Shown here in pieces: positions 34,484 to 40,692 of a stretch of 64,000 nucleotides of DNA. Under the pieces are notes generated by a model. It ran no database searches. It saw nothing but the letters and a program-made list of their open reading frames with translations, and was not told the DNA's origin. Made by a program: the position numbers and the translations under genes. This DNA is from an uncultured bacterium (lineage in GTDB: Bacteria > Verrucomicrobiota > Verrucomicrobiia > Limisphaerales > UBA8199), in assembly GCA_963749495.1 (NCBI GenBank), contig CAVVMW010000005.1, forward strand, positions 288,001 to 352,000, given 5' to 3'. Position 1 is the stretch's first letter. Each line of letters begins with the position of its first letter.

Positions 34484-34558
34484 TGGCTGCCTCGCCTGGA
34501 ATTGCACCAGGTCCTTCGGTTTCAGAGACCGACGCGCTCCTGATTACACCACGAGGCC
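34484..34558 (-). tRNA. tRNA-Gln(CTG)
   Basis: TCGGT-CTCTGAA-ACCGA arm, encoded CCA. Confidence 0.85.
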
Positions 34559-34627
34559 CGCCGTCGCGCTTTGCGCTAAGGCGCGGCAAGCGATTGGCCC
34601 GCCGAGCCGTAGCCGGCAGGCGAAGGC

Positions 34628-34701
34628 TGGTCGCTCGGGAAGGTCCTGCCCCTCCGATTTCTGGGTGTAGGCCAGACGTGATGCTATTTCACCACCGAGC
34701 C
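34628..34701 (-). tRNA. tRNA-Val(TAC)
   Basis: TCTGG-CCTACAC-CCAGA; C33; CCA. Confidence 0.75.
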
Positions 34702-34811
34702 TTTCGAATGCGGAACTCGGAATGCGGAGTGCGGAGTGCCAAACGAGAACGAAGGCTGCTTGTGCGCGCGCCCCCATTCCGCACTCTGCATTCCCCACTC
34801 CGCACTGGGAA

Positions 34812-34885
34812 TGGCTGCCTCGCTTGGATTCGCACCAAGATCATCGGGGTCAAAGCCCGGCATGCTGCCGTTACACCACGAGGCA
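34812..34885 (-). tRNA. tRNA-Gln(TTG)
   Basis: TGCCTCG acceptor, CTTTGAC loop, CCA. Confidence 0.85.
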
Positions 34886-34993
34886 AGGAATCGGCCTGCC
34901 AAGCCGTAGCCCGGCACGTCACAAATGCTCGCCTCCGCACTAGCGTGCTTCGGCGCAGCAGCCCTCGCCACCCGTCGCGCGTGTGGCGAAGGC

Positions 34994-35070
34994 TGGTGGA
35001 GCCGGAGGTAGTTGCAACCTCACCAAACCCGATTAAAAGTCGGGTGCCGGTCTGCTGTGGCTTCGGATCC
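34994..35070 (-). tRNA. tRNA-Lys(TTT)
   Basis: CCCGA-CTTTTAA-TCGGG; CCA. Confidence 0.8.
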
Positions 35071-35077
35071 AGGAAAA

Positions 35078-35162
35078 TGGTGGGCGAGAGAGGATTTGCA
35101 CCTCCAAGGCTCACAGACTCTCGATCTGTGGGGTCTGCTAATTCCCTCTGAACCACTCGCCC
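35078..35162 (-). tRNA. tRNA-Leu(GAG), atypical fold
   Basis: ACAGA-TCGAGAG-TCTGT; short variable region; C33; CCA. Confidence 0.75.
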
Positions 35163-35171
35163 AAAGAAAAG

Positions 35172-35247
35172 TGGTGCTCCCGGCCGGAATCTCACCGGCA
35201 ACCTCAGCCTTCGGAGGGCCGCGCTCTGGTAATTGAGCTACAGGAGC
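35172..35247 (-). tRNA. tRNA-Arg(CCG)
   Basis: CGGCC-CTCCGAA-GGCTG; CCA. Confidence 0.85.
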
Positions 35248-35343
35248 AGTCCTAATGTGGAATTCGGAATGCGGAGTGCGGAATAAGAATGTGCACAGGG
35301 CTCTGCACACTCCGCATTCCGCACTCTACACTCACCACTTGAA

Positions 35344-35414
35344 GGGGTCTCCTGCCGGTGCTGCCCCGGCCTGGCTTGTTTACAAAACGAGCCTGCAGGC
35401 TGCCGCAAGGAGAC
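35344..35414 (-). tRNA. tRNA-Thr(TGT)-like, small D arm, no CCA
   Basis: GTCTCCT/AGGAGAC acceptor, TTTGTAA loop. Confidence 0.6.
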
Positions 35415-35452
35415 GAGATGGCCTGCCGAGCCGTAGCGCTCGGCGCGAAGGT

Positions 35453-35618
35453 TGGTCGCAATCCCCAGTGCTGCCCTGGGCACGGCTGGCTTATGAAACC
35501 GGCCTGAGCGCTAGCCCTTTCAAGTGCAAAGTGGAGAATGCAAAGTGCGGAATGCACCGGGCGCGGGCGTAGCGATGATAATTCTGCACTCCGAATTCCG
35601 CATTCTGCACTGATGGCG
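35453..35618 (-). tRNA. tRNA-Met/Ile2(CAT), interrupted by a heptamer hairpin
   Basis: TTCATAA loop, CCA; candidate 5' acceptor strand CGCCATC (35612-35618) lies beyond a roughly 90-nt hairpin. Confidence 0.55.
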
Positions 35619-35652
35619 GGTGGGTCTGCTCTTCCCCGTGAACCACGCGCCG
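35619..35652 (-). pseudogene. 5' half of a fifth atypical tRNA-Leu
   Basis: CGGCGCG-TGGTTCAC-GGG-GAAGAGCAGA-CCC matches the other Leu genes. Confidence 0.65.
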
Positions 35653-35658
35653 AGAAGA

Positions 35659-35769
35659 TGGCGTCCCTGACCGGCTTCGCTCCCGCCTTCGCTGGAAAGC
35701 TACGGCGGGGCAGGCCGGTGATCTCCTGCATGAGAGGCAGGCATTTTGTCTGGACTACACCACAGGGAC
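35659..35769 (-). tRNA. tRNA-Glu(CTC) with 33-nt insertion in the T arm
   Basis: CCTGC-CTCTCAT-GCAGG; insert 35682-35714; CCA. Confidence 0.8.
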
Positions 35770-35775
35770 TGAAAA

Positions 35776-35852
35776 TGGTGAGGGCAGGAGGCTTCGCACC
35801 CCCAACCTGATGCATGTGACGCATCCGCTCTGGCTGGCTGAGCTATGCCCTC
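35776..35852 (-). tRNA. tRNA-Val(CAC)
   Basis: GATGC-GTCACAT-GCATC; CCA. Confidence 0.85.
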
Positions 35853-35888
35853 AAAATGGCTCGCCGAGACGTAGCTCCGAGCGAAGGC

Positions 35889-35964
35889 TGGTGGGGGACG
35901 AAGAGTGCTGCCCTCTTTGCCTCTCGGATGTCAGACGAGCGCTCTCCTGGTGAGCTACGTCCCC
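35889..35964 (-). tRNA. tRNA-Val(GAC)
   Basis: CTGACAT loop, GCTC/GAGC D stem; CCA. Confidence 0.75.
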
Positions 35965-35970
35965 AACAAA

Positions 35971-36020
35971 TGGAGCGGGTGGACGGAGTCGCACCGTCGA
36001 CTCGGCCTTGGCACGGCCCT
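35971..36020 (-). pseudogene. tRNA-Gly(GCC), 3' two-thirds only
   Basis: GGCC-GTGCCAA-GGCC, T arm, CACCCGC-T-CCA; 5' part missing next to the GIY-YIG stop. Confidence 0.7.
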
Positions 36021-36030
36021 TGGAGATAAA

Positions 36031-36297
36031 CTAGCTCCCCAGGCTCTCCGCTCCGCCCCAGAAGTGTCGTTTTGCGAAGGCATGGCCGGACCCGCTCTTC
36101 AGGTATTTCTCGAAGTGCTGGGCCTGTTCAAGGGACTCGAACGCAACGTACACCTTGAGCGTCCAAGGTATGAACTTGGACGTGTGCGGACATTTACCGG
36201 CGTTATGGTCTGCCACTCGTTGACGGAGGTCTGCCGTATGACCGATGTACCTCTGGTCGCGGTGGCTCAAGCTCTGGATGACGTATGTGTAAAACAT
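36031..36297 (-). CDS. Stand-alone GIY-YIG nuclease
   Basis: YTYVIQS...YIGHT.DL..RV..HNAG...FEKYLKSGSG. Confidence 0.9.
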   Translation of the reverse strand: MFYTYVIQSLSHRDQRYIGHTADLRQRVADHNAGKCPHTSKFIPWTLKVYVAFESLEQAQHFEKYLKSGSGHAFAKRHFWGGAESLGS

Positions 36298-36680
36298 ATT
36301 GCGGCCTGCCATCCATAGCTTGGAACCCGTTCCGTGGAAAGTCCTCCTTCGCCGAGCCTACGGAGGACATCCTCCGTTTGGCCCCCTCGCCTGGCTCGGG
36401 TTCCGAGCGGAGGATGGTGTCCCCAGCCGATTAAATCCAGAACGAAGAATGCAAAGTGCAGAACGCCCCACTCCCTCGCCATTGTCGAAAACCCAAATCC
36501 ATTTTGCATTCTTCATTCTGAATTCTTCATTTCAAAGGGCGGCCTGGATTGCGGGTCCGGTTCCGCTCGCTGGGAAAGGAGGCCGTTTCCTGCTGCTTGT
36601 GCCGCCAGCGCAGGAACTTCTGAAACCGGGCAAAATTCGTTCGGAGCGAATTTTGATAGGTTTTGTCCTCGAAGAACAAA

Positions 36681-36768
36681 TGGCGGAATGCCGTGGACTT
36701 GCACCACTTGCCTGGAGGCACGCACTCGTTAGCACCGAGGCCCGGTTCGCTTGCCCGGTTGGCATTCC
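36681..36768 (-). tRNA. tRNA-Ser(GCT), 8/4 fold
   Basis: 8-bp acceptor GGAATGCC/GGCATTCC, 4-bp T stem, long variable arm, G73-CCA. Confidence 0.8.
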
Positions 36769-36808
36769 AGAAATGGCCTGCCGAGCCGAAGCTCGACAGA
36801 GCGAAGGC

Positions 36809-36892
36809 TGGTCGGCGTGGGGAGACTTGCGCTCCCAAGGCTGTTCGGGTTTGAGCCGAACCGGTCTGCTATTCCCGGTAAACCACACGCCG
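36809..36892 (-). tRNA. tRNA-Leu(CAA), atypical fold
   Basis: TTCGG-CTCAAAC-CCGAA; A73-CCA. Confidence 0.8.
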
Positions 36893-36924
36893 GCCCGCCG
36901 AGCCGTGGCCCGGGGAGCGAAGGT

Positions 36925-37010
36925 TGGTCGGCGCCCCGGGACTTGCACCCGGAAGGCTCAGCGATTTTAAGTCGCTGGGGTCTGCTGATTCCCGCTGAAG
37001 CCAGGCGCCG
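36925..37010 (-). tRNA. tRNA-Leu(TAA), atypical fold
   Basis: AGCGA-CTTAAAA-TCGCT; A73-CCA. Confidence 0.8.
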
Positions 37011-37123
37011 AGAAAATGGCCTGCCGGGTCGGAGTTCGGAGCGAGGGTCGGATGCCCGCCTACGCCTCAAAGGCAGGCTTCGGCGAGACAGTCTTCGTTC
37101 TCCGCTGCGCTCCGAACGAAGAC

Positions 37124-37207
37124 TGGTGGGCATGGAGGGACTTGCACCCCCAAGGCTGCCAGATTCTGAATCTGGACCCTCTGCTATTCGGGTTGAACCA
37201 CATGCCC
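37124..37207 (-). tRNA. tRNA-Leu(CAG), atypical fold
   Basis: CCAGA-TTCAGAA-TCTGG; A73-CCA. Confidence 0.8.
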
Positions 37208-37216
37208 AGTTGAAAT

Positions 37217-37292
37217 TGGTGCTCCCGGCAGGACTCTCACCTGCAACCGGCGGTTCGAAGCCGCCCGCTCTGATATTTTGAGCTACGGGAGC
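37217..37292 (-). tRNA. tRNA-Arg(TCG)
   Basis: GGCGG-CTTCGAA-CCGCC; CCA. Confidence 0.85.
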
Positions 37293-37378
37293 CCTCCAAA
37301 TGCAGAGTGCGGGATGCAGAGTGCAGAATGACGCCCTTCCGTTCTGCGTCCCCCATTTTGGATTATTCAGTTGAAAAT

Positions 37379-37825
37379 TGGGGCCGGTGGGGAGACTCGC
37401 ACTCCCGTGGTAACTGTTCAGGTGTTGGACCAGTGCTGGCTTCGACGCCAGCGCCGGGCCCAGCCAAGCCGTTGTCCCGGAGGGACAACCCGAGAATAGC
37501 CCGGCGCTTCAGCGCCGGGTCCGACGCCCTAAAAACCCCGCGTCCCGACAGGGACGCCTGAGGCTCAGCACCGCAAGAGGCCAGCCGATTCAGCCGTCCC
37601 TCCGGGACGGGCGGGAGATTAGACCGCTTTCCCCGGCGCTGAAGCGCCGGGCTATTTTCGGGCTGTCCCTTCGGGACAACGACGGCCCTCGAACCAGAGC
37701 GCGTCCCGAGAGGCCCCGGCGGCGATGTGGCAACCCATGTGCCGAGACCTGAACAGTTACCTCCCGTGGGACGAATTGCCCGGCAGTTTACGAAACTGCT
37801 GCTGTCGCTGCTGAGCCACGCCGGC
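37379..37825 (-). tRNA. tRNA-Thr(CGT) with long variable arm, split by a MITE
   Basis: GCAGT-TTCGTAA-ACTGC; removing 37410-37768 restores the gene. Confidence 0.75.
37410..37760. mobile_element. 351-bp MITE-like element carrying a REP-type long palindrome
   Basis: TIRs GTAACTGTTCAGGT/ACCTGAACAGTTAC; direct repeat CTCCCGTG at 37402-37409 and 37761-37768. Confidence 0.9.
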
Positions 37826-37933
37826 CTCCGAAATGCGGAATGCAGAGTGCGGAGTGCGGGATTGCACAGAGCCGTCACAACAACGCTTGTGCTCCTCATT
37901 CCGCACTCAGCACTCCGAACTCCGCACTGAAAA

Positions 37934-38007
37934 TGGTGGGTCGCCACGGTGCTGCCCCGTGCTCTGCGGTTTAAGAGACCGCTGCATCGCTGCAATGCTT
38001 GCAACCC
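37934..38007 (-). tRNA. tRNA-Lys(CTT)
   Basis: GCGGT-CTCTTAA-ACCGC; CCA. Confidence 0.85.
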
Positions 38008-38010
38008 AAC

Positions 38011-38085
38011 CGCGACACGAAGGCGGAGTTGAACCGCCGCAGCCAGATCTGTGAAGTCCTGGCCGGCACCGGTGTTCGCGTCGCG
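38011..38085 (-). ncRNA. tRNA-like RNA (11-bp closing stem, canonical T arm, no CCA)
   Basis: CGCGACGCGAA/TTCGTGTCGCG; GGCGG-TTCAACT-CCGCC. Confidence 0.55.
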
Positions 38086-38090
38086 TGAAA

Positions 38091-38165
38091 TGGAATCCCG
38101 TGTGAGAGTCGCACTCACCTGCGCGGTTTTGCAGACCGCTGCCTGGGCTGCTCGGCCAACGGGAC
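38091..38165 (-). tRNA. tRNA-Cys(GCA)
   Basis: GCGGT-CTGCAAA-ACCGC; U73-CCA. Confidence 0.85.
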
Positions 38166-38273
38166 ATCTGAATGCGGAGTGCGGAGTGCGGAGTGCAGAG
38201 TGCAGAGTGCGCAATGTCTGCGGTGCTGCCCCTCAGGCATTCCGCATTCTGCACTCCGCACTCAGCATTTGGT

Positions 38274-38700
38274 TCACGCTGCCCGCACAAAGTCCGAGAT
38301 GACGGCTGGAACGCTGGTGTCGAAACCAACCACGTCCAGCATCCCGCGGTCGTTCGGGTCGGCCAGGGTGAAGCCACTTAAATGAAGAGTTAAGAATGCA
38401 GAATGAAGAACGGAGGACGCCCTCAGCCGCCGTTGGTCTTGATTCCTCATTGTGCATTCTTCATTCTGCATTCATGTGGGCCCAGACCATCGGCAGCGAG
38501 CAATCCGTGCCGCCCATCGGGATCGCACGGACCTTCTCGATGACGCTTTCCAGGCGCATTCGGGGCGAGAGGGCGACCCGGGTAATGCCTGACTCACCGC
38601 CACCCCGCTGGCCGCCGTGACCGCTGGCGGCTGCGCTGAAGGCGATGATCTCGCACTCGGGGTCGGTTGCCGCCGTCACCAGGGCCATGGCGATGGACAA
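38274..38700 (-). pseudogene. rsr: Ro60/TROVE protein, C-terminal vWA remnant
   Basis: AMALVTAAT...MGGTDCSLPMVWA and GFTLADPNDRGMLDVVGFD; split by a heptamer hairpin, N-terminus absent. Confidence 0.8.
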
Positions 38701-38701
38701 G

Positions 38702-38821
38702 TGGCGCCGTAGGGTGGGGATCTCCTTACGGGAATCGAACCCGTCCGGAACTTGAATCCGGGCGCTCTCCCATGGCGAGCGTCCTCCCCGTGCTGGAGGA
38801 TGACCTGCGGACTTCGGCCCA
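38702..38821 (-). ncRNA. tRNA-like RNA on a long stalk (Y-RNA candidate)
   Basis: D-like GCTC..GAGC, hairpin CCGGA/TCCGG, ACGGG-TTCGATT-CCCGT; ends pair; abuts the Ro60 remnant. Confidence 0.55.
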
Positions 38822-38828
38822 TGCGAAT

Positions 38829-38936
38829 TGGTCAGGAAGCCGGGATTCGCACCCGGACCGTCCGCTTCACAGGCGGAGATGCTGTCCACCCTCCGCAGTG
38901 CTGCTACGGAGGACGGGCTGTTACACCACAATCCTG
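38829..38936 (-). tRNA. tRNA-His(GTG) with 33-nt insertion in the D loop
   Basis: TCCGC-CTGTGAA-GCGGA; insert 38884-38916; A73. Confidence 0.75.
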
Positions 38937-38941
38937 GAAAA

Positions 38942-39019
38942 TGGTGCCCCCAGGTGGACTCGCACCACGATCCTCCTGCTTCGCGGGCAGGCGTGCACAT
39001 TCTCTTACACCTTGGGGGC
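38942..39019 (-). tRNA. tRNA-Arg(GCG)
   Basis: CCTGC-CCGCGAA-GCAGG; C33; CCA. Confidence 0.8.
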
Positions 39020-39323: not shown

Positions 39324-40467
39324 CTAACGCCGGAGCGCGCGCGTCTTGTAGGTGAGGAGCGGCCGGAAGGTGGCGATAACCGAGATGAGTCCGGCGTCCG
39401 CCAGGTCCTGGACCACGTCCTCGATGCTCTTGTAGGCGGCTGGGGCCTCTTCGTAGAGCAACTCGCGCGGCTCGCAGATGACTTGGCCCCCCAGCGGCGT
39501 TTGGGTCAACTGCTGCCGGCCAAACCGTTCGCGCATGCGCAGGCGGCTCTCACTCCGGGCCCGACCTGCGGCCGGCACCGTGGGCCAAAGACCAGGCGTG
39601 GCTGACGCCATCTCCAATGGGCTTCACGAGGTAACTGAGCGACCCGCGGGAGCCAGGGATCATCACCGGCTCCCGTTCGGCTGCCACGGCACCCTTCCGA
39701 TGCACCCAGACCGCTTCGCCAGGGCTGCCCCTCACCCCGTCCCTCTCCCCATCGGATGGGGAGAGGGTGGCCGCAAGGCCGGGTGAGGGGACGCGAGCGA
39801 TGCTGTTGTGGCAGCCGTCCCAGAGGCACTCGGCCTCCGCTCCCAGCGCCTCGACGAATCGTCGAGCGATGAGCGCCCGGTTTGTCTTGGCCCACCTCAG
39901 GGCCAAGTCATGGTCGCGGAGATAGCCCGCCGCAGCAAACGACTCGGGATCGGAGCCTTCGGCCTGATGCTCTTCCGCGTACGCCCGCAGGACCGATTCG
40001 CCCAGACCGCGCGAGCCGCTGTGGACCAGAACCACCAGTTGCTGTTTGCCCAGGCCCAACCGCCTGAATGCTGCTGCGTCCAAGACGGCCTCGACCTTCT
40101 GCAGTTCGGCGAAGTGATTGGCGCCGCCGATGGTCCCCAGCGCTTCATCGAACTCCGTGGATTCAAGCTCCGCTACGGCGAGAACCTCGCCCACATCGCC
40201 TTCCCACGGATGCTCCAGGTCAAAGCGAAGGTCGGCCCACCCGCCTACGCGCTCCGCGCTCCGGCGCGGCAGGTCTGTCTTGAACAGGGCCGTGCCGCAA
40301 CCGATGTCGCCGCCGATGAGGTGGGGATAAATGACGCCCTTGGTGACGAGGGCGGCGCCCACCGGGCTGCCCTTGCCCGGGTGCAGGTCCGGGAAACCGA
40401 CCGCCAGGCGTACACTTTCGAGTCGTGCCGCCGCATAAAGCTGGCGAACCGCTTCGCCTTCGATCAT
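39324..40467 (-). pseudogene. rtcB: RtcB-family RNA ligase (PrfH-coupled RtcB2-like), frameshifted near 39560
   Basis: PDLHPGKG, GDIGCG, NHFAE, HSGSRG, HN, HRKGA, HGAGR, EEAPAAYK, RPLLTYK. Confidence 0.85.
39729..39790. repeat. CCCTCACCCC..CCCTCTCCC palindromic element inserted in frame in rtcB
   Basis: Nested hairpin encoding PSPGLAATLSPSDGERDGVRG between the HN and HRKG motifs. Confidence 0.75.
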
Positions 40468-40585
40468 CTGCCTGCCCTCCGCAAAATGTAGAATGAAGAA
40501 TGCAGAATGAAGAATGCCCCGGATCACGCACCGCAGGGCGCGGACGGAGATTCTGCATTCTCCATTCTGCACTCTGCATTTGAAC

Positions 40586-40692
40586 TGGCTGCCAGGGTTG
40601 GACTCGCACCCGCCGTCGCTCGGAGCTATGGCGGGGCAGGCCAACACCTAACGGCTTAACAGGCCGCCGTGCTGCTTTGACACAACCTGGCA
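40586..40692 (-). tRNA. tRNA-Asn(GTT) with 32-nt insertion in the T arm
   Basis: GCGGC-CTGTTAA-GCCGT; insert 40609-40640; G73-CCA. Confidence 0.8.

Follow-up and report, generated by a model that had tools for sequence, protein, structure and literature searches.

A family of bacterial and phage tRNA-Leu genes in which a short connector:variable helix is predicted in place of the long variable arm

Can a tRNA-Leu gene that lacks the long variable arm and carries several additional nucleotides in front of its D stem still encode a functional tRNA? This question is raised by a group of genes between positions 35,078 and 37,207 of a 64,000-nucleotide (nt) stretch of DNA from an uncultured bacterium of the verrucomicrobial order Limisphaerales (GenBank assembly GCA_963749495.1, contig CAVVMW010000005.1, positions 288,001 to 352,000; the whole stretch is referred to here as the window). 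Bacterial tRNA-Leu normally has a long variable arm and A73. An earlier note on this DNA had described genes for Leu(GAG), Leu(CAA), Leu(TAA) and Leu(CAG) together with a 5' fragment, in which a connector of 8-9 nt behind the acceptor strand could pair with a short, invariant variable region (AGCCTT) and a D-like stem covaried, and had proposed that they represent an alternative tRNA architecture. As outlined here, this architecture is supported by covariation, the test set beforehand having come out in its favour. The sequences suggest that the genes encode supernumerary, phage-derived and functional tRNA-Leu with a rewired core, which would be charged by the single leucyl-tRNA synthetase (LeuRS) of the host and would belong to a lineage common to giant phages and one order of bacteria; we put the probability of this reading at roughly two in three.

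The coordinates and anatomy given in the earlier note for the four full-length genes and the 5' fragment were right, and all five lie on the minus strand (Table 1). In all four full copies a 7-bp acceptor stem is followed by U8 and by the start of the connector, which reads GGUU or, in the UAA copy, GGCU and has 3-5 nt more behind it. The extra connector is thus present as claimed, with a length of 8-10 nt, not 8-9 nt, that varies with the register of the D stem. The D stem of 3 bp (GGG/CCC, CGG/CCG or CCC/GGG) encloses a (G)AAU(U/C)AGCAGA loop in all four copies and is separated by 1 nt from an anticodon arm with a 5-bp stem and a 7-nt loop (4/4). The variable region consists of one nucleotide followed by AGCC and UU (7 nt), and the T arm of a 5-bp stem and a UGCAAGU, UGCAAAU or CGCAAGU loop, before A73 and an encoded CCA. 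The geometry of a functional tRNA (7/5 acceptor/T stems, 5/7 anticodon arm, discriminator and CCA) is therefore present in the four copies. What is missing is the single junction with a 2-nt 8-9 connector of the four-way cloverleaf, in the place of which the 8-10-nt connector and a covarying helix are found. The likeness of the 5' fragment to the family stops after its final A.

The layout is not restricted to the window. A covariance model was built from eight copies of the window's genome with the four classical stems and with the proposed helix left out; because this helix-free model gives the window copies 91-104 bits and the same layout recurs in hundreds of sequences elsewhere, the architecture seen in the window is not a product of chance. 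From the searches, 143 unique sequences were parsed and 8 with a misplaced acceptor register were dropped, leaving a family set of 135, the metagenome part of which comes from among the matches listed. Alignment A6 contains 98 matches (92 distinct rows) aligned to the helix-free model, in which columns 9-12 pair with columns 56-53. Pair counts were taken from A6 and from a separate parse, and a MAFFT alignment (A4) was left unused (rows with a connector of 9-10 nt were shifted by one column). Support for the four classical stems is strong, and all five helices stay paired by way of compensatory change: 96.6% of 2207 stem cells in A6 are paired and 22 of 24 pairs are changed on both sides, with family-wide pairing of 99.1% in the acceptor stem, 99.6% in the T stem and 96.1% in the anticodon stem. 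The covariation that the earlier note had seen in the D-like stem extends to all three of its pairs, each changed on both sides. In 32 of the 92 rows the first D-stem pair is open, owing to an offset of one in the GAG and UAA subtypes.

The 4-bp connector:variable helix is supported as well, and the pairing of the connector with the variable region proposed in the earlier note is favoured by several controls. In A6, 96.2% of the helix cells are paired, as compared with 27-73% in slid registers. Three of the four helix pairs are changed on both sides, against 0.5 in shuffles (3/500 as high), and nine cells are doubly changed, against 0.6±0.7 (0/500 as high). When additional viral members are included, a total of 141 unique sequences fall into 21 strand combinations, 10 of them fully paired. 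When each distinct combination is counted once, 68 of 84 cells are paired, versus 53.8±2.5 with the 3' strands shuffled (0/20000), and for the 15 combinations with a 3' strand other than AGCC the figures are 49 of 60 and 36.7±2.3 (0/20000). The fully paired combinations include GGUU:AGCC, GGCU:AGCC, GAAC:GUUC, GGAC:GUCC, GACC:GGUU, GGGU:ACCU, GGUC:GACU, GAUU:AAUU and GAGU:ACUU (sources in Table 1). The AGCCTT element, invariant within the window, is not so throughout the family, since 14 of the 135 unique members have another 3' strand. A reading of the connector as an intron, or as a segment removed by RtcB-type splicing, was rejected, given that both strands of the helix are conserved and covary.

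The Leu identity of the family appears well supported, if indirectly. The anticodon was unconstrained in every search that fed the 135-member set, and all 135 members have a Leu anticodon (CAA 37, CAG 32, GAG 27, UAG 20 and UAA 19). A73 is found in 55 of 56 unique genome-derived copies recovered with the model; metagenome and viral matches, in which the search pattern fixed A73, were not counted. U8 is present in 134/135 members, as is a variable region ending in UU. This region is 7 nt long in 132 members and 6 nt in three, and thus lacks the hairpin of more than 10 nt that marks a class II long arm. The D loop, GAAUAGCAGA, resembles that of the class II tRNA-Leu of the host, GAAUUGGCAGA, the main difference being one nucleotide fewer in the GG region. 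[quoted passage not shown] Most of the E. coli elements have a counterpart in the family; the G18:U55 contact does not.

The family is widely but patchily distributed. The window's own genome contains 12 copies (10 at ≥85 bits, one with an insertion in the T arm and one divergent), and members were found in 17 of 101 genomes of relatives (≥77 bits) and in 16 of 151 genomes of an even sample of the order (≥76 bits); a model search at E≤1e-13 found the family in none of 150 other genomes of the phylum. Near-identical members (~100 bits) occur in different families of the order, which, together with the patchy distribution, points to horizontal spread. [quoted passage not shown] They returned 14 loci in virus records, 7 of them true members, and at least 125 loci in metagenome contigs (89 distinct strings), almost all members. 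A looser pattern, AGCAGA…GTGCAAGT, gave mostly chance matches over genome contigs, with one true member (L163) among the matches listed (at least 120). Two of the member-bearing virus records are near-complete, one of 202.7 kb (terminal repeats, CheckV 100%) and one of 207.8 kb (94%), and both contain large tRNA arrays with the same type of T loop, which has G at position 55 (G55). Genes beside family members in phage records match PHROG families, e.g., phrog_2475 at 4e-66. A BLAST search with one member against GenBank phages (INPHARED) and PLSDB plasmids gave no match, and neither RtcB nor Terminase_6N nor a LeuRS was found in five member-bearing viral records, three of which are fragments. 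In metatranscriptome contigs of four studies, members are found in the order CAA-UAA-CAG-Arg, without the spacers of the window.

In the host, the rewired genes exist next to a standard set. The window's genome (11.4 Mb, 31 contigs, 126 tRNAs called by ARAGORN) retains canonical long-arm tRNA-Leu with UUCAAGU-type T loops for all five anticodons (Table 1), so that the copies in the array are supernumerary. LeuRS is encoded at a single locus (C18:173503-177085, C numbers denoting contigs of this genome). The family model matches two different open frames there (468 and 987 amino acids), which could reflect a frameshift, an assembly error or a split gene. The idea of a dedicated LeuRS for the rewired tRNAs was discarded, as there is one locus in the genome and none in the five viral records.

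A further particularity of these tRNAs is their elbow. G is found at T-loop position 55 in nearly all array tRNAs of the window, of five other arrays of the genome and of two giant-phage records (L341 and L342), the T loops of which read UGCGAAU, UGAGAUU, UGCAAGU, CGCGAUA, GGCAGCA or AGCGUUA and the D loops of which lack the GG doublet. The dispersed canonical tRNAs of the same genome have a UUCRA T loop. Within the family the T loop is UGCAAGU in 125 of 135 unique members, and instead of the canonical elbow (G18G19 with U55C56) the D loop has a single G. The GGCAGCA sequence, unlike any T loop, is found in a subgroup of array tRNAs that ARAGORN missed (Table 1). In the anticodon loop, the near-universal U33 of tRNAs is present in 107 of the 108 unique members with anticodons other than GAG; the Leu(GAG) copy of the window has the loop UCGAGAG, i.e., C33. 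The possibility that GAG members have a CGA or a 4-nt anticodon was considered and rejected, because a 7-nt loop is obtained only through A31-U39 closure and class I-like relatives alternate between UUGAGAG and UCGAGAG. In one of these relatives (C21:703643-703719), an 8-nt loop, UUCGAGAG, receives the anticodon call 'cgag' from ARAGORN.

A possible source of the family is found in the same arrays and phages, which also encode tRNA-Leu that share its D and T loops and have a connector of 2 nt and a variable arm folded into a 13-nt hairpin (L330, L329 and C7:33703-33787). The last of these shares its acceptor stem with the CAG copy of the window and is 85 nt long, against 84 nt. The simplest reading of these sequences is descent from a class II tRNA-Leu through the loss of about six nucleotides from the variable arm and the gain of about six after position 9. 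Other arrays of the genome contain a third form, a class I-like tRNA-Leu of 75-77 nt with a 2-nt connector, a 3-bp D stem, a 5-nt variable loop and A73, which is a second way of dispensing with the long arm (Table 1).

In the proposed model, the parts of the molecule that face the translation machinery are canonical (7-bp acceptor and 5-bp T stems, 5/7 anticodon arm, A73 and CCA) and the core would be rewired. There are at least six extra nucleotides after U8, from which the 4-bp helix would be formed with nucleotides one to four of the six at the end of the variable region. This helix would enclose the D hairpin and the anticodon arm, so that the four-way junction becomes two nested three-way junctions (acceptor/helix/T and helix/D/anticodon). 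In this geometry, its 5' strand would run from right after U8 to 3-5 nt before the first base of the D stem, and its 3' strand from one nucleotide past the anticodon stem (N44) up to the two U residues before the T stem (U47-U48), paths that nt 9 and nt 45-46 take along the D stem in a normal tRNA. The helix would likely stand alongside the D stem, which consists of 3 bp and a G·A layer, at an equal height of four layers and replace both the 9/45/46 base triples and the long arm, with U8:A14 and A15:U48 still possible and the dimensions of the L-shape kept. Since 70 of the 135 unique members have a Watson-Crick pair at position 26:44 (C:G 43, G:C 27), the anticodon stem could stack on the D stem or on the new helix. 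The genes would be transcribed polycistronically and then processed, and the one LeuRS of the host would recognise the tRNAs by A73 and by their Leu-type D loop and hinge and charge them, so that all six Leu codons would be read. They may belong to a full tRNA set of phage type, retained by some host chromosomes beside an RNA-repair ligase, which would sustain translation when host tRNAs are limiting, damaged or attacked.

The family is a rare natural departure from the standard tRNA cloverleaf, in which the long side arm is swapped for a short new helix. With canonical class II tRNA-Leu it has in common A73, the Leu anticodons, a 3-bp D stem, a D loop of the GAAU…GCAGA type, the 7/5 stems, CCA and a length of 84-88 nt. 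The two differ in the connector (2 nt, U8 and N9, in class II; 8-10 nt in the rewired tRNA), in the variable region (a hairpin arm of 13-16 nt against 6-7 nt that pair with the connector), in the D loop (a GG doublet against one G fewer) and in the T loop (UUCAAGU against UGCAAGU, with G55). Among published cases, E-loop tRNA1 comes closest; it is one of the tRNAs of acidobacterial irregular tRNA polycistrons of Mukai et al. (2017; PMC5389517; reviewed in PMC7609411) and has an extra loop between the acceptor and D stems. From what the available text of PMC5389517 states, E-loop tRNA1 has an 8/4 branch, U73, GGU, GCU or AGC anticodons and a UUCGA T loop and is not charged by E. coli GlyRS or ThrRS, in contrast to the 7/5 branch and A73 found here; that text describes no pairing of the extra nucleotides with the variable region. 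A term search of the sequence table of the same paper (AGCAGA, AGCCTT, AGCCUU) returned unrelated rows only, and the text and table together set the E-loop tRNAs apart from the rewired family. The allo-tRNAs (Mukai et al., 2017) resemble the family in being non-canonical bacterial and phage tRNAs from metagenome mining, some with Leu anticodons. They differ, as far as the same portions of PMC5389517 go, in an 8/4 or 9/3 branch, a long variable arm, a tRNA-Sec-like D arm, G73 or U73 and Ser identity, while the rewired tRNAs have a 7/5 branch, a short variable region and A73. Animal mitochondrial tRNA-Leu also lacks the long arm and is recognised via A73 and A14 (PMC9976931, available part), but it has an ordinary four-way cloverleaf with a 2-nt connector and no connector:variable helix. 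The long tRNA arrays of bacteria and phages (Santamaría-Gómez et al., 2021; PMC8421152) are likewise supernumerary tRNA sets, and their tRNAs are discussed together with RtcB in translational stress; the portions of that article at our disposal report neither rewired cores nor G55 T loops, and here RtcB adjoins the array. Searches of the PMC and bioRxiv literature found no account of any Leu tRNA that has a connector:variable helix (subscription journals lying outside this search).

Several observations weigh against the proposed structure and function, the first group of which concerns the helix. Thermodynamic folding alone is equivocal. Minimum-free-energy folds contain the helix in 3 of 8 sequences (the GAG, CAA and UAA copies of the window). 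For Leu(GAG) all five stems (acceptor, new helix, D, anticodon and T) are recovered in the fold, and for Leu(UAA) the helix is found in both the minimum-free-energy and the centroid fold; it is absent from the minimum-free-energy folds of the CAG copy of the window and of four divergent members, and RNAalifold on A6 predicts the four classical stems and not the new helix. At least one mismatch occurs in 11 of the 21 strand combinations. Most of the mismatches are C·A or A·C, or are located at pair four in the UAA subtype, and two of the mismatched combinations are parse artefacts of 1-nt deletions. Five unique sequences of the UAA type have C·A or C·C as their fourth pair, the combinations GAUU:AGCC and GGUC:AGCC are mismatched as well, and one member (L315, GGAC:UCAU) pairs only with a 1-nt slip. 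Moreover, compensated variants are few (~12 unique sequences) and several come from the same UAA lineage, which means that not every event is independent, and a single strand combination accounts for 108 of the 141 unique sequences, making most of the pairing uninformative. The missing RNAalifold call, the tolerance of single mismatches and the dominance of one combination would all suit extra nucleotides that form an unpaired 'extra loop', as in the E-loop tRNAs, with a complementarity to the variable region that is coincidental or inherited by descent. Yet an unpaired loop would not be expected to produce at least nine distinct fully paired combinations with changes on both strands, found in the own genome, in metagenomes and in several unrelated viral contigs, and the permutation of distinct combinations as well as the shuffle and slide controls favour the helix; we regard such a loop as improbable.

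The second group of observations concerns function. Because G18:U55 and G19:C56 matter for E. coli LeuRS (PMC9976931, available part), the non-canonical elbow, with G55 and without the G18G19 doublet, means that charging by a standard LeuRS is not assured. C33 is found in 27 of 27 unique GAG members (loop UCGAGAR), and some irregular acidobacterial tRNAs were either uncharged by E. coli enzymes or charged but unused, as related in the accessible text of PMC5389517. The metatranscriptome contigs attest presence in RNA libraries only, show neither ends nor strand nor level, and may derive from DNA carry-over. The RNAs might thus fold as described, helix included, and act as tRNA-like decoys, regulators or substrates, e.g., by soaking up tRNA-targeting nucleases or toxins or by serving a mobile element. 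This would fit the G55 elbow across the whole array, the C33 of the GAG members, the fate of the irregular tRNAs in E. coli, the RtcB and GIY-YIG nuclease genes in or beside the array and the rejection of most copies by standard tRNA finders. A decoy, however, needs no exact set of five Leu anticodons, kept in 135/135 members, no A73, no encoded CCA and no 7/5 and 5/7 geometry kept by compensatory change, and the arrays overall cover most amino acids, as decoding sets do; this alternative is unlikely, although it is the most serious one. The least probable reading, by a small margin, takes the genes to be tRNA pseudogenes in decay, located in junk arrays and without a function under selection. 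Degenerate copies do exist, e.g., at 35621-35652, at C15:359170 (connector UCGCC, T loop UGCUAGU) and at L042:349 (several stem mismatches), and some copies have T-arm insertions (C4:602415-602529), but the pairing of 96.6% of stem cells with widespread compensatory change, the near-identity of copies across families of the order and phages and the complete Leu anticodon set are not what decay would leave behind. We thus favour functional, supernumerary tRNA-Leu with a rewired core.

A bolder form of this proposal is more tentative, and we hold its chances to be slightly short of even. It states that bacteria and giant phages may use a translationally active tRNA without the four-way cloverleaf, in which a duplex replaces the long arm and the base-triple layer, and which, with its G55 elbow, would be a phage innovation through which a full Leu-decoding set operates with LeuRS and the ribosome of the host, yet eludes enzymes or defence nucleases of the host that recognise cores of the standard type. 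If the RNAs are charged and used, they would mean that nature can reconstruct the core of a tRNA around another junction topology while both functional ends are kept, and they would constitute a natural test of LeuRS requirements (the hinge and A73, and neither the long arm nor the G18:U55 elbow). The compact scaffold may serve orthogonal tRNA engineering, and the link to giant phages, the G55 elbow and the adjacent RtcB point to a phage-host contest over tRNA pools. Standard tRNA finders have a blind spot here. ARAGORN called none of the four rewired Leu genes of the window and five other tRNAs, and with the Rfam tRNA model (RF00005) the CAG copy was the sole one of the four to pass (32.9 bits versus a gathering score of 29). 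In E-value mode the GAG copy reached 28.5 bits, below the gathering score, and the CAA and TAA copies were absent from the matches up to E=10. Leu decoding capacity would thus be undercounted in phage and array annotations, provided that the RNAs are charged and used.

Table 1. Positions of the genes, helix strands and associated elements. Plain numbers are window positions; entries with a C prefix refer to contigs of the window's genome.
Feature	Position or source	Strand	Evidence or remark
tRNA-Leu(GAG), rewired type, 85 nt including CCA	35078-35162	minus	sequence; covariance model 91.3 bits
Leu(GAG), new helix	GGUU 35151-35154 with AGCC 35108-35111	minus	sequence and family covariation
5' fragment, 32 nt	35621-35652	minus	sequence; acceptor strand, U8, GGUUCAC, GGG, GAAGAGCAGA, CCC, A
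tRNA-Leu(CAA), rewired type, 84 nt	36809-36892	minus	covariance model 103.9 bits
Leu(CAA), new helix	GGUU 36881-36884 with AGCC 36839-36842	minus	
tRNA-Leu(UAA), rewired type, 86 nt	36925-37010	minus	covariance model 92.5 bits
Leu(UAA), new helix	GGCU 36999-37002 with AGCC 36955-36958	minus	
tRNA-Leu(CAG), rewired type, 84 nt	37124-37207	minus	covariance model 99.8 bits
Leu(CAG), new helix	GGUU 37196-37199 with AGCC 37154-37157	minus	
Helix variant GACC:GGUU	own genome (C7) and complete 202.7 kb phage		
Helix variant GAAC:GUUC	207.8 kb phage		
Helix variants GGAC:GUCC and GGGU:ACCU	metagenome contigs		
Helix variant GCCU:AAGC	metagenome contig		one C·A; second pair G-C to C-G
Helix variant GGUC:GACU	virus record		
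Helix variants GAUU:AAUU and GAGU:ACUU	further virus contigs		
tRNA gene array, ~20 tRNA-like genes	roughly 34487-39019	minus	ARAGORN, Rfam, sequence
RtcB RNA ligase gene, directly upstream of array	39550-40647	minus	Pfam PF01139, E 2.8e-48
Small GIY-YIG nuclease-domain gene, 93 amino acids, within array	36031-36312	minus	
Canonical Leu(CAG)	C4:90170 and C4:92062		
Canonical Leu(UAA)	C10:171473		
Canonical Leu(CAA)	C15:430872		
Canonical Leu(UAG)	C21:222030		
Canonical Leu(GAG)	C22:467067		
Class I-like tRNA-Leu	C4:602038-603514, C15:359489-359564, C21:703643-706783		
tRNAs with GGCAGCA T loop	35893-35964, 37934-38007, about 35340-35420, about 35430-35510	minus	
Acido-Lenti-1	37632-37678	plus	Rfam
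Acido-Lenti-1	37473-37519	minus	Rfam
Inverted repeats of 7-nt units	about 34700-34810, 35265-35335, 35530-35610, 37300-37345, 37855-37935, 38175-38290		
Hairpin-forming trailer	36770-36808, 36893-36924, 37011-37123, 34886-34995, 35853-35892		
T-arm insertion, tRNA-Glu(CUC)	35662-35769	minus	
T-arm insertion, rewired Leu(CAG)	C4:602415-602529		
T-arm insertion	L038:491-581		

The array that contains the rewired genes is flanked by ordinary chromosomal content (glycoside hydrolases, an oxidoreductase and a FecR-like protein), and several such arrays exist in the same genome, on contigs C4, C5, C7, C15, C21 and C25. The groups of tRNA genes in the window are interspersed with other elements. Two Acido-Lenti-1 elements lie within the array in opposite orientations, with scores of 44.7 and 38.3 bits versus a gathering score of 37. 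An acidobacterial host, to which this motif had pointed, was discarded in favour of the PVC group, probably Verrucomicrobiota; expansions of DUF1559 mark the PVC group, and the genome of the window has 41 matches to DUF1559. Long inverted repeats of 7-nt units (TGCGGAA, TGCAGAG, TGCGGAG and their complements) are located between the groups and give spurious matches to microRNA precursors in the E-value mode of Rfam. Directly 3' of ACCA, several array tRNA genes continue into a hairpin-forming trailer, which is conserved (…GCCUUCGC…GGCAGGCC). Related arrays on contigs from RNA libraries lack these trailer spacers, their joints skipping 34, 41 or 136-137 nt. In some array tRNAs a GC-rich hairpin of 16-33 nt is inserted within the T arm (Table 1), which may be a mobile insertion or an intervening sequence. 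The copy of the Glu gene on C4 (602536-602613) is without the insertion, and RNA-library contigs of three studies join position 35681 to 35715, with 33 nt skipped.

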